The notes below the pieces were generated by a model, which searched no databases, was not told the DNA's origin, and saw only the letters and a program-made list of their open reading frames with translations. From an uncultured cyanobacterium (GTDB taxonomy: Bacteria > Cyanobacteriota > Cyanobacteriia > CAKZMO01), in contig CAVRCJ010000003.1 in NCBI GenBank assembly GCA_963719515.1, positions 672,001 to 736,000 of the forward strand: a DNA stretch of 64,000 nucleotides, in the 5' to 3' direction. Below are positions 36,889-63,154 of the stretch, piece by piece (the stretch's first letter is position 1; each line of letters begins with the position of its first letter). Made by a program: the position numbers and the translations under genes.

Positions 36889-37140
36889 GTGACATCCTCC
36901 CGACGCTGACAGCAAGCTGTACAGCGCGGGCTTCCTCAGTGACTCCCAGCTATTGCCGAGACATATCCTGAGATAGGTTTATACTCCGCCTGATGCCCCA
37001 CGGCAGAGTTTTGAATTTTCATCTCCGCGAGGGAGGATACGCACTATGTGTCGCAGATACATTTGCAAACTGAGGAACGGGTGACTTGCAGCTTTCGCCT
37101 ACGGGCCCGTCACACTCTTTGCGGGGTGTATCACCTTGCT
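36889..37140 (-). ncRNA. putative omegaRNA-like scaffold (guide would extend into the flank below 36889)
   Basis: Extended -10 TGGTATGAT at 37147-37155; long-range helix TTCCTCAGT/ACTGAGGAA; ends at the IS right end; no tnpB ORF. Confidence 0.55.
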
Positions 37141-37281
37141 ATCTCTATCATACCAACTGCTAGCCTCAGCGCTGCCCGCAACTATCCGCTGTGCATCATT
37201 TTGCGGGCGCACTTCGGCTAGCGCGACTCTCATCCCGACGCTCACCCTGACGGGTAGAGCGCGGGGCTTCCTGTCTAGTAG
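36889..37281 (-). mobile_element. non-autonomous IS200/IS605-type element, type I copy 1
   Basis: Minus strand: TTAG|..AAGC-CCCGCGCT..AGCGTCGGG left hairpin; GAAG-CCCGCGCT..AGCGTCGGG-AGGATGTCAC right end; repeated at 62219-62610. Confidence 0.88.
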
Positions 37282-37354
37282 CTAAAGCGCAGGTTGCTGT
37301 GATCCTGATATACAACTATAAAAGCAAGCATAAGTATGTATTAGGTAACGGCGA

Positions 37355-38821
37355 ATGGACTTTAAGGGAATTGATATTGCACAGGCAGACTGGAGCGGCG
37401 ACTGCCTAGCCGTTGGGCTATTTGAAGGGCAAGATATTGCCGCAGACTTCACGGCCCTCGATCAGGCGATCGCCGGGACGCTGTCAGAGCTGGTGACGGA
37501 AGCTGAATTTACCGGCAAGGCGGGTAGCCTAGCGATCGCCCGCGTAGGGGGGGGCAGCGCCATCCGCAAGGTGGCGGCGATTGGCCTTGGGGCTAAGGGT
37601 GAGTTGACCCTGGAGATTCTGCGCCGCGCCGCCGCCGCCGCCGCCCGCACCGCCCACAAAGAAAAGTGCGCCAAGCTAGGGCTGAACTTTCCGCTGTGGA
37701 AGCAGGACAAGTCGCTGACCGCCCAGGCCCTAGTGGAAGGCGTAGAGCTAGCTTCCCATCAAGACACCCGCTTTAAGTCTGAAGAGGATAAAGCCGCCCA
37801 TCCCCAAACCGTAGAGCTGCTGGGGCTGGCGGGCCAGGAGACAGACATTGAGCGATCGCTGCAGGTGGTGGCCGGCGTAATTTTGGCCCGGGAGCTGGTG
37901 GCCGCCCCCGCCAACATCGTCACCCCCCTCACCCTGGCGGAGACGGCTTCGGCCCTAGCCCAGACCTACGACCTAGAGCTGGAGATTCTAGAGCAGGCCG
38001 ACTGCGAAAAGCGGGGCATGGGCGCTTTCTTGGGGGTGGCCCAAGCCTCCGACATTCCCCCCAAGTTTATCCACCTCACCTACCGCCCCGACGGCACCCC
38101 CCGCCGCAAGCTGGCCATCATCGGCAAAGGCCTTACCTTTGACAGCGGCGGCCTCAACCTGAAGCCCTCCGGCAGCGGCATCGAAATGATGAAAACCGAC
38201 ATGGGAGGCGCGGGGGCCACCTTTGGGGCAGCAAAGGCGATCGCCCAGATTAAGCCGGACGTTGAAGTGCATTTCATCTGCGCGGCCACAGAGAATATGG
38301 TCAGCGGGCGGGCGATGCACCCCGGCGACATTCTCACGGCCTCTAACGGCAAAACCATTGAGGTCAACAACACCGATGCCGAAGGCCGCCTTACCCTGGC
38401 CGATGCCCTCGTCTTTGCCGACCAGCTTGAGGTGGACGCTGTGGTAGATCTTGCCACCCTCACCGGGGCCTGCATCGTTGCCCTGGGGAACAAAATGTCT
38501 GGGCTGTGGACCGAGGAGGAAGCCTTAGCCAACCAGATCATGCAGGCCGCCGAACTTTCCGGGGAGAAATTTTGGCGCATGCCCATGGAAGAGACCTACT
38601 TCGAGGGTATGAAGTCCGTCGTAGCCGACATGAAAAATACCGGACCTCGCGCCGGAGGAGCCATTACGGCGGCGCTGTTCTTGAAGCAGTTCGTTAAAAC
38701 GACGCCCTGGGCTCACCTTGATGTGGCGGGTCCGGTGTGGACCGATAAGCCGGACGGCTACAACAGCCCTGGCGCTACAGGATTTCCAGTGAGAACGCTG
38801 GTGAACTGGGTGTTGTCGTAA
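37355..38821 (+). CDS. pepA: leucyl aminopeptidase (M17)
   Basis: [39 protein letters not shown]. Confidence 0.97.
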
Positions 38822-38899
38822 GACGTAAGATGTTCTGCTCAGCACTCAGTCTTTTTGAGGATATTGTGCCCAATGGGTTGGCACTGCCCGATAGCCTAT

Positions 38900-38927
38900 G
38901 TTAACTTTAGCTAAGAAGCTTGACATT
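38900..38927 (+). promoter_or_regulatory. possible HLR1 (RpaB) repeats upstream of hli
   Basis: GTTAACTT-ta-GCTAAGAA-gc-TTGACATT, degenerate octamers with 10-bp period. Confidence 0.3.
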
Positions 38928-38945
38928 AATAAGGTTGAATGCACC

Positions 38946-60735: not shown

Positions 60736-60768
60736 CGGCCAAATTGGTCAGATAGATAAACGCCATCG

Positions 60769-62097
60769 CTAGGACTGTACAAGGTAGCGGGTTTCCTCAG
60801 CCGCCCGCTGCATCGCCTGCACCGGCGACAGCCGCCCGGTGAAGGCGGCGCTCAAGTAGCGCTGCAAAATGTCAGAGGCCTGGGCGTATTGCGCAATGGG
60901 GGGACGCAGCACCGCGTTTTCGATCACCCCCAGCAGGTCGGGGTAGTGAGGATATTGGGCCACGATGGCGGGGTCGGTAAACAGGGCGCGGCGGCTGGGC
61001 ACATAGGCGTTCAGCAGCACAAACTCCCGCTGAGACTCAGCGCTGGCGAAAAATTCCACCACCCGCCAGGCCTCCTCAGGATGAGGGCTGCTCTTAGAAA
61101 TTCCAAAGCCCCAGCCGCCCTGGCAGGCGCCGCTGTTTTCACCGGCGGCGTGCACCATGGGCTTGATGCCCACCTTGCCGGCTACGGGGGAATCGTCCCC
61201 GTTCACTAAAGCCCAGGCGTAGGGCCAGTTGCGCATGAACACCGAGCCGCCGCTCTGGAACAGGCGACGGGCCTCTTCTTCTTGGTAGTTGGTGACGCCG
61301 CTGGGGGAGACGCCCTGCTCGATGGTGGCCTGCAGCGCCTGCACGGCGGCGATCGCCTCGGGCTGGTCTAGCCCCACCTCGCGGGTGTCTGGGTCCACCC
61401 AAAAGCCGCCGAAGCCTTCCAGCATCTCCACAAACATAGCGGCCATACCCTCATACTGGCGGCCCTGCCACAGGTAGCCCCAGTCCGCCGCGTCCGCTTC
61501 CTGGAGGGTTTGGGAAATTTCCATCAGCTCATCTACCGTTTCCGGCGGCGGGGCCCCAATCTGGTCGAGCAGGTCAGTTCGGTAGTAGAGCATGCCGCCG
61601 TCAGAGCGCACCGGGATGCGGTACAGCTCCCCGTCGTAGCGCCCGCCGTTCACGTCTCCTTCTAAAAACTCCGCCAGCTCAGCCTCTGATATGCGGTCTT
61701 CCAAGGGCGCGAGCCAGCCCGCCGCCGCAAATTTCTGCACCCAGACGATGTCCATATACACCAGGTCGTAGGGGGAGTCCCCCAGCAAAAACGAAGAGGT
61801 GTACAGGTCTTCAACCAGGTTGGTGGCGTTGGGGCCTTCGACGATATCAAGGTCAATATCTGGATTGGCGGCCTCAAACGCCTCAACAATAGATTGCCAC
61901 TGGGCCCCCTCCAGCGCCTGAATGAGTACCGCAATGCGCACCGGCTGGGACTGGGACCAGCTCACTACGCCGGACAGCACAATGCTCAGGCAAACGGCGA
62001 TCGCCACGGCCCCGAGCCGCAGGGGGCTAGCGGCAAGACGGCGCAGTGCAGGTCGCCACGAGGGGGGGCGAAGCCGTTGTAGGTGCTGCTGAATCAC
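60769..62097 (-). CDS. carbohydrate ABC transporter substrate-binding protein (trehalose/maltose-like)
   Basis: MDIVWVQKFAAAGWL, LYYRTDLL, QYEG, FMRNWPYAW; start uncertain. Confidence 0.9.
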   Translation of the reverse strand: MIQQHLQRLRPPSWRPALRRLAASPLRLGAVAIAVCLSIVLSGVVSWSQSQPVRIAVLIQALEGAQWQSIVEAFEAANPDIDLDIVEGPNATNLVEDLYTSSFLLGDSPYDLVYMDIVWVQKFAAAGWLAPLEDRISEAELAEFLEGDVNGGRYDGELYRIPVRSDGGMLYYRTDLLDQIGAPPPETVDELMEISQTLQEADAADWGYLWQGRQYEGMAAMFVEMLEGFGGFWVDPDTREVGLDQPEAIAAVQALQATIEQGVSPSGVTNYQEEEARRLFQSGGSVFMRNWPYAWALVNGDDSPVAGKVGIKPMVHAAGENSGACQGGWGFGISKSSPHPEEAWRVVEFFASAESQREFVLLNAYVPSRRALFTDPAIVAQYPHYPDLLGVIENAVLRPPIAQYAQASDILQRYLSAAFTGRLSPVQAMQRAAEETRYLVQS

Positions 62098-62218
62098 GTT
62101 TTTGGGGTTCTAATACTCTTCGCTTGACAACCGCGTTTAGATTGGGCCGCTCAATACCTAAGCCCAGCGCGTGAACTAAGGGTATCCTACCGAAGAGCGC
62201 TGCCAAGCCCAACTGCAA

Positions 62219-62610
62219 GTGACATCCTCCCGACGCTGACAGCAAGCTGTACAGCGCGGGCTTCCTCAGTGACTCCCAGCTATTGCCGAGACATATCCTG
62301 AGATAGGTTTATACTCCGCCTGATGCCCCACGGCAGAGTTTTGAATTTTCATCTCCGCGAGGGAGGATACGCACTATGTGTCGCAGATACATTTGCAAAC
62401 TGAGGAACGGGTGACTTGCAGCTTTCGCCTACGGGCCCGTCACACTCTTTGCGGGGTGTATCACCTTGCTATCTCTATCATACCAACTGCTAGCCTCAGC
62501 GCTGAGCGCACTATCCGCTGTGCATCATTTTGCGGGCGCACTTCAGCTAGCGCGACTCTCATCCCGACGCACACCCTAGCGGGTAGAACGCGGGGCTTCT
62601 CGTCTAGTCG
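62219..62610 (-). mobile_element. non-autonomous IS200/IS605-type element, type I copy 2
   Basis: 62219-62504 identical to 36889-37174; same TTAG and TCAC boundaries. Confidence 0.88.
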
Positions 62611-62705
62611 CTAAACGATAGAGAAGCTGTCGCTGGGGTGAAGAGGCGAAAAGTCCGCCAGCCGGCCAACCAGCCAGCCAGCCCGCAAATTAGCAAACAG
62701 GCTTC

Positions 62706-63154
62706 GTGACATACTCCCGACGCTCATCTTTTAGATAGAGCGCGGGCTTCTTGGCTCACGCACCACAATTTAATGGATGCCGCGCAAGAAGGTTTCCTGC
62801 TTCATCTGGTCCTGTCTAGTTACGCAGCAAGCCGTGCAACCCCGATTAGATCCCATCGACAGGCGATTTGTTTAATGCCCAGGCAATGACCAACCCCAGA
62901 CAGTGACGAGTATTCAATTTCCAGCTACGTTTTCTACCGTCTGCACTGTTCACCAGCCAAGGGCTGTACGTTTGTGTCAGGATAGCAGGCCGCCGCCATG
63001 AAATAGTTTGAGCTTGGTTCAATTGTACCCTTTGCTCGCCTCGGCGCTGCCCTTAATTGCCGCCTTCGGCATCCAGTCAAGGGCGCACCTCGACTCGCTC
63101 GCTTACATCCCGACGCTGATGCTGCGCATACAGCGCGGGGCTTTCACGAACTAG
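62706..63154 (-). mobile_element. non-autonomous IS200/IS605-type element, type II
   Basis: Same AAGC/GAAG-CCCGCGCT..AGCGTCGGG hairpins, TTAG target and GTCAC end; different interior; -10 TACAAT at 63022-63027. Confidence 0.85.

Follow-up and report, generated by a model that had tools for sequence, protein, structure and literature searches.

Protein-free IS605-type mini-elements with predicted guide-RNA scaffolds and uncatalogued front domains in an uncultured cyanobacterium

Insertion elements of the IS605 type that encode no protein have been described before (cited here from the accessible parts of the reports). PATEs are haloarchaeal terminal remnants that form homogeneous multi-copy families and are too short for a transposase; they lack terminal inverted repeats, carry IS605-like palindromes near their termini and do not duplicate their target (PMC3119063). 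In Geobacillus stearothermophilus, PATE-like gene-less IS605 elements moved by TnpA often carry an omegaRNA for a TnpB acting in trans (PMC10055086). Stand-alone omegaRNAs of OMEGA systems are mobilised, effector-less and work in trans with compatible effectors of the same genome; their role is stated to be unknown (PMC10691335). Protein-free IS605 elements with omegaRNAs for TnpB in trans are thus already known (PMC10055086, PMC10691335). In this study, three mini-elements that resemble these systems in the features listed, two of type I and one of type II, were analysed in a 64,000-nt stretch (the window) of an uncultured cyanobacterial genome (GCA_963719515.1, contig CAVRCJ010000003.1, positions 672,001 to 736,000). 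In the accessible text, no promoter, guide scaffold or front domain is described for PATEs (PMC3119063), and no promoter-plus-front-domain layout, module swapping or cross-order domain for the Geobacillus elements (PMC10055086).

With moderate confidence, we read these loci as protein-free IS605 mini-elements that would be moved by TnpA and would make guide RNAs for TnpB in trans, a front domain likely substituting for the tnpB message. The first-pass annotation had already proposed mobile, self-promoted guide-RNA genes; the ends, scaffolds, −10 box, copy-specific flanks and partner genes support this in part, but the idea itself had been published. The front domains, which lie outside tnpB, are the part that the annotation missed, and the unexplained part. 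The genome offers a clean test of such a system, with one TnpA, two TnpB clades and 71 gene-less copies that carry a promoter and a predicted guide of their own.

Ends, copies and partner genes

The annotation had placed three minus-strand elements in the window, each preceded by TTAG and ending in GTCAC, with AAGC before the left hairpin, GAAG before the right hairpin and a −10 box 6 nt past a second left-end stem. All of this was found as described, flanks and coordinates included, except that the left hairpin of copy 2 deviates from the proposed motif at two positions. Six-frame translation gave no TnpA or TnpB open reading frame (ORF) in any element, and no Y1_Tnp or TNB Pfam match fell inside them. 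As had also been claimed, the type I and type II interiors past the −10 box were unalignable (local score 16 vs 16.8 ± 3.0 in shuffles); the second-stem blocks do align (46 vs 17.6 ± 3.2, 0/300 shuffles). As in PATEs, the near-terminal palindromes are akin to IS605 ends, terminal inverted repeats are lacking, and insertion takes place 3′ of a constant tetranucleotide and does not duplicate the target. All three window copies are intergenic; an M20 peptidase gene has its stop codon in the TTAG that precedes the type II copy (63155-63158).

The genome-wide copy search suggested at first pass gave 53 full-length type I copies (96.4-100% identical) and 18 full-length type II copies (98.7-100% identical) in 5.28 Mb. 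Every type I copy (53/53) is preceded by TTAG and terminated by TCAC, and each feature is present in 17 of the 18 type II copies. This constancy is not due to chance, since the background frequency of TTAG is only 0.0023 per position. The 16-nt right flank differs in every copy of both types, so that the new flank expected with each insertion is indeed there, its role as a guide being predicted. No match to TTAG plus 12 nt of flank was detected elsewhere in the genome for any of the 71 copies, which fits guides whose sole target is the empty site of their own element. At one paralog of a tnpB-element insertion site the flanks are joined gap-free. The genes flanking copy 1 lie only about 110-120 nt apart in the relatives G004 and G001, and copy 1 is therefore absent from both. 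A plasmid search gave no match for type II.

Several single loci were observed during these searches. One type I copy lies inside another IS605 element, between a broken tnpA and the remaining tnpB (L010, G000 C6:428067-428458). At G000 C6:143690-143749 a short remnant consists of a left end like that of type II, folded back into a perfect palindrome, and four mini-elements (L124, L147, L152, L103) directly adjoin tRNA genes.

Profile searches of the genome returned 14 Y1_Tnp and 81 TnpB zinc-finger matches. Among them are three autonomous tnpA+tnpB elements, whose TTAG/AAGC and TCAC/GAAG ends are common to type I and whose tnpA is intact (139.5 bits on Y1_Tnp); these would supply the single compatible TnpA in trans. 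Type I ends are also carried by 16 full-length tnpB-only elements. Compared with tnpB elements, the mini-elements are 95.6% identical at the left end (68 nt) and 85-88% at the right end (85 nt). A second TnpB clade (419 aa) shares 149 of 383 residues (39%) with the first (398 aa), and includes an unbroken tnpB at C10:892623 that is preceded by TTAG and whose start resembles type II. Full-length tnpB elements number 16 + 11 for the two clades, and the candidate partners presumably carry intact RuvC-type motifs. The parents postulated in the annotation, with one TnpA and two TnpB subfamilies, accordingly have intact candidates with matching ends, and the scaffolds of type I and type II agree with the 3′ ends of the two clades.

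Under the IS608 pairing rule, guide and target tetranucleotides are predicted to change jointly. Across families they were found to do so, at the left end (AAGC/TTAG, AAGT/TTAA, CAGC/TGAG) and at the right (GAAG/TCAC, GAAT/TCAA), which agrees with the IS608-type pairing first suggested. In 419-aa-clade tnpB genes (L162, G000 C10:892623, C3:362180) the −10 box lies 6 nt upstream of the ATG, which would make their mRNAs leaderless; in some copies of this group the right-end hairpin carries an additional insert.

Scaffolds, promoter box and front domains

The annotation described the interiors as two different omegaRNA-like cargos. They are not foreign throughout: in their 3′ parts both are remnants of the 3′ ends of tnpB genes. 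In type I the final 125 nt correspond to the 3′ end of first-clade tnpB, with frame and stop retained (local score 52 vs 17.0 ± 2.9, 0/300 shuffles), and the type II core to the 3′ end of the second clade (38 vs 18.9 ± 2.9, 0/300 shuffles). In genome G346 an intact tnpB of the 419-aa clade (L268) terminates in a close type II core (75% over 72 nt). As in stand-alone TnpB omegaRNAs, the scaffold stems from a tnpB 3′ end, runs to the right end and has a subterminal hairpin there. Two-sided changes preserve the scaffold helices, in 15/31 pairs of the type I-like scaffold (7 sequences, end hairpins included) and in 5/8 pairs of the type II-like core (16 sequences). Judged from sequence, the mini-elements look like long-lived lineages.

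The stand-alone omegaRNAs of Altae-Tran 2021 are reportedly IscB RNAs with a 5′ guide, unlike the mini-elements, in which the predicted guide is 3′ and the candidate partners are TnpB. The type II core has its closing stem in common with RAGATH-18 (RF03064), the guide scaffold of IS607 TnpB (PMC11061315, accessible part). Membership was rejected at 17.4 bits against a gathering cut-off of 44.9; type II-like cores scored 17-26 bits in 6 loci, the best relative reaching 25.7. The mini-elements also differ from RAGATH-18 loci in having Y1-type rather than IS607 ends and no tnpB upstream.

The −10 box stands in the position that it has in tnpB-only parents, 6 nt upstream of their start codon. The second stem covaries (two-sided change in 18/22 pairs, 15 sequences) and occurs 76 times in the genome, always in an element without genes. 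It is present in all three window copies, as claimed, but copy 2 and 50 of the 53 type I copies have a weakened version in which two GG are replaced by CT, which makes copy 1 the exception. In a tnpA-bearing element of G025 (L113) the second stem separates the left end from the tnpA stop. Absent from a third type of mini-element (type III) and weakened in most type I copies, it is, by this comparison, a dispensable left-end feature outside the predicted RNA.

Between the −10 box and the omegaRNA of type II lies a front domain of about 80 nt. The fold obtained with RNAalifold was that drawn by hand beforehand: 94.1% of cells are paired and 13/17 pairs show compensatory changes (19 sequences), figures that kinship among the sequences can inflate. 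None of 500 shuffles reached any measure, and slid controls gave 16-38%. Held-out loci scored 50-81 bits on the covariance model. G-U cells outnumber A-C cells 27 to 8, which favours the sense strand. In this genome the model matched 21 times: all 18 type II copies and another 3 that are diverged variants. The front region is only marginally like the 419-aa parent tnpB (33 vs 22.8 ± 3.1, 1/300 shuffles), and derivation of the core from RuvC-III codons, considered by eye, was rejected.

The exact core pattern occurs at 33 loci in 15 other GTDB genomes, 14 of them cyanobacterial by title, including Nostocales, Acaryochloris, Geminocystis, Spirulina and Leptolyngbya. A 2.4-kb contig of an Aeromonas bin with a cyanobacterial-type element (L137) is likely misbinned, possibly a transfer. 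A further 20 loci were found in metagenomes, several being the same DNA; viral contigs gave one domain match, without insertion-sequence (IS) context. From the 52 pattern loci parsed, 43 have 250 nt downstream, and 39 of these continue into an omegaRNA core and right end; the exceptions are a variant core, a locus that lacks IS context and an interrupted element that was seen twice. A loose −10 pattern, tuned by eye, precedes the domain in 45 of the 48 loci with enough upstream DNA, against 25% of shuffled windows; at L277 and L280 TTGACA-16-TATAAT stands 7 nt upstream of the domain. Model searches added loop-variant members in gene-less IS605-type elements (L277, L278, L280, L281, L186) and two partial ones (L188, L189). 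The domain was absent from the tnpB-bearing loci tested (L011, L020, L030-L032, L160-L163, L258, L268, L269). In the domain-bearing mini-elements L126 (215-382, minus strand), L142 and L188, a small divergent ORF lies between the left end and the promoter, and tnpB is lacking; it encodes 55 aa (DUF6364, 27.6 bits vs cut-off 27.3) and is, we assume, ribbon-helix-helix-like.

When the type II region and 18 + 13 related loci were scanned against Rfam by E-value, no family matched any front domain. No description of the domain was found in openly accessible article texts, and the accessible part of a 2026 screen of cyanobacterial RNA structures does not mention transposons (PMC12873609). The domain resembles the hatchet ribozyme (RF02678; PMC4604424, PMC6561176, accessible parts) in size, stem column, conserved internal loops and variable top hairpin. 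This candidate was rejected: the covariance model gave no match at E<=10 among 135 candidates scored in the genome, and the U-G-G-G loop strand and the CAA linker after the P1 hairpin are absent from the domain. By eye against the alignments, the conserved segments C20-A22, U28-G31, G63-G66 and A73-A75 were not recovered, and the bases following GUGC covary, unlike the fixed hatchet ones. An IStron, a group I intron joined to an IS605 element, with the intron core at the left end and insertion inside genes, was likewise rejected, as no intron family appeared in the Rfam scans and all three copies in the window lie between genes.

The type I front region is not above shuffles against parent tnpB (22 vs 23.6 ± 3.0) and shows one compensatory change among 3 sequences. 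Among 400 genomes it was found elsewhere only in the congeners G002 and G004; the match in G052 and G290 is confined to the first scaffold hairpin. A fold like that of the hepatitis delta virus ribozyme was considered by eye and rejected. Type III comprises 6 full-length copies with a TTAA target, no second stem and a type II-like scaffold (83-85%). Its front domain has compensatory changes in 6/26 pairs (5 sequences), is present in 4 other genomes and bears a weak likeness to that of type I (29 vs 17.1 ± 3.1, 2/300). Two single-copy mini-elements (L156 and L157, at G000 C4:97960-98400 and C7:179690-180080; relative L095) combine the second stem and −10 box with other ends and another front sequence. 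Other gene-less cyanobacterial IS605 elements (L100, L101, L076, L213, L214, L225) have a promoter, an omegaRNA core and unrelated or distant front domains, L100 scoring a weak 21 bits on the type II model. As far as sequence comparison goes, the ends, the second stem, the front domain and the scaffold are modules that are combined independently of one another. The picture of one chassis with two cargos covers one part of a larger mosaic.

Mechanism and alternatives

In the mechanism that we propose, TnpA made elsewhere would excise the top strand and insert it at TTAG. The −10 promoter of the mini-element would drive an RNA of front domain, scaffold and flank. Its predicted length is about 250 nt in type I and about 310 nt in type II, to which a guide of 15-20 nt from the flank is added. 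The 398-aa clade would be loaded with type I RNA and the 419-aa clade with type II RNA, TTAG being the predicted transposon-associated motif (TAM). TnpB probably trims the 5′ end, as on its own mRNA, for which 5′ processing has been shown (PMC10278001, accessible part). Loaded TnpB would cut the empty site left by excision and the element would be restored, following the model of TnpB-guided retention and homing (PMC10055086, accessible part). The front domain likely replaces the lost tnpB message by stabilising the guide RNA or handing it over. More tentatively, its job could be to shield a ribosome-free RNA from 5′ decay or to serve as a protein handle, which is the weakest link of the mechanism. 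The covariation of the front domain shows that such elements are more than remnants and are under selection as RNA genes. The domain is a compact, uncatalogued structured RNA, and a natural 5′ module that stabilises or matures separately made TnpB guides would serve TnpB editing tools.

A number of observations weigh against this mechanism. Identity of the type I scaffold to local tnpB ends is 85-88% and is limited to the final 85 nt. By blastn, type II matches local tnpB nowhere but in the right-end hairpin, and it is closer to mini-elements of distant genomes (78-83%) than to any local tnpB end; within G401, the best match outside mini-elements is 73%. Since the scaffolds have diverged from local TnpB ends, loading in trans is not assured. 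A promoter scan of 62100-63250 detected neither a −35 box nor a full −35/−10 promoter on the element strand. In two RNA runs, X1 and X2 (shares 0.06 and 0.05), there are contigs from relatives of type II that span 62706-63158, including sequence upstream of the −10 box; such contigs cannot give strand, ends or level, the libraries may contain DNA, and they were not counted as support. Other mini-elements have other front sequences or none (L103, L267), and the domain is rare (4/150, 4/151 and 2/41 genomes in overlapping samples, with 28-104 candidates scored per genome). Its near-invariant loop exceeds what a mere stabilising hairpin would need. As for empty sites in relatives, which the annotation had proposed as a check, copy 1 is absent from G004 and G001, but the exact TTAG junction is unreadable for all three copies, the G004/G001 spacer being too diverged and the neighbours of copies 2 and 3 non-syntenic in G002-G004.

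The invariant loop also raises an alternative that we consider unlikely, namely that the type II front domain is an active module of an undescribed class, either a ribozyme that cleaves itself or an aptamer that senses a ligand or a protein, and that it matures the guide RNA or acts as its switch. Near-invariant internal-loop bases amid freely covarying helices below a variable top hairpin, shortest versions that start at the predicted +1, and an A-rich linker before the scaffold would suit such a module. The invariance, however, is partly by construction in the 33+20 pattern loci, and the loop varies in model-found members (L186, L188, L189, L277, L278). No pseudoknot was found, and Rfam ribozymes and riboswitches, the hatchet model included, gave no match. 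We also doubt the wider claim that a new catalytic or ligand-binding RNA matures or gates trans TnpB guides in long-lived, horizontally spreading cyanobacterial RNA-only OMEGA lineages with gained, swappable front domains.

It is improbable that the folds act in the transposing single-stranded DNA, in TnpA loading or circle protection, with RNA uninvolved. Every covarying fold does lie on the transposed top strand, and the second stem stands upstream of the promoter and recurs in the tnpA-bearing L113. The domain, on the other hand, is always downstream of the −10 box without overlapping it, internal scaffold helices are conserved beyond the end hairpins, and tnpA- and tnpB-bearing parents move without the domain. 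Quite improbable, too, is a decoy function, in which the RNAs would occupy TnpB, or a host protein, but yield no productive cleavage and so damp TnpB. The excess of 71 promoter-bearing copies over the tnpB elements of the two clades, the divergence of the scaffolds from native ones and a reported inhibition of cleavage by a TnpB mRNA region (PMC10278001, accessible part) could be explained in this way, but scaffold helices and the TCAC junction are retained as in working omegaRNAs, and guided repair of its own site benefits the element directly. Decay of deletion derivatives with neutral interiors and only the end hairpins of consequence is very improbable: although the type I scaffold is still readable as a tnpB C-terminus and mini-elements without front domain or promoter exist (L103, L048), the compensatory changes in the type II domain extend across orders, which largely refutes it, and in addition the −10 box is conserved and the front domains lack parent-gene homology.

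Coordinates and neighbouring features

Table 1. Features of the three mini-elements, in window positions
Feature	Position	Strand	Remark
Type I mini-element, copy 1	36889..37281	-	393 nt; between TrkH transporter gene and M17 aminopeptidase gene
TTAG target tetranucleotide, copy 1	37282..37285	-	predicted TAM
Left-end hairpin, type I copy 1	37231..37269	-	guide tetranucleotide AAGC at 37266-37269
Second left-end stem, type I copy 1	37159..37222	-	upstream of −10 box
Extended −10 box TG-n-TATGAT, type I copy 1	37147..37152	-	retained in 52/53 copies
Type I front domain	37010..37139	-	no detectable parent-tnpB homology
Type I copy 1, segment 3′ of front domain up to right end	36889..37009	-	
Right flank of copy 1	36869..36888	-	predicted guide, after PMC10278001 (accessible part)
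Type I mini-element, copy 2	62219..62610	-	392 nt; 97.4% to copy 1; −10 box 62477-62482; TTAG 62611-62614
Right flank of copy 2	62199..62218	-	predicted guide
Type II mini-element	62706..63154	-	449 nt
Type II left-end hairpin	63106..63143	-	with guide AAGC
Second left-end stem, type II	63034..63094	-	
Type II −10 box TACAAT	63022..63027	-	retained in 17/18 copies
Type II front domain	62927..62998	-	conserved, not in Rfam; three stacked covarying helices, variable top hairpin
Near-invariant internal loop of front domain	62967-62978 with 62943-62953	-	
First scaffold hairpin and A-rich linker, type II	62865..62901	-	found in most related mini-elements
Type II omegaRNA core	62794..62864	-	homologous to 3′ end of 419-aa TnpB clade
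Type II right-end hairpin	62706..62750	-	with guide GAAG and cleavage site TCAC
Right flank of type II copy	62686..62705	-	predicted guide

At gathering scores, Rfam matched only tRNA in the window, a single gene at 25573-25657 on the minus strand. A 433-aa tnpB gene at 30591-31892 on the plus strand belongs to another IS605 family with different ends.

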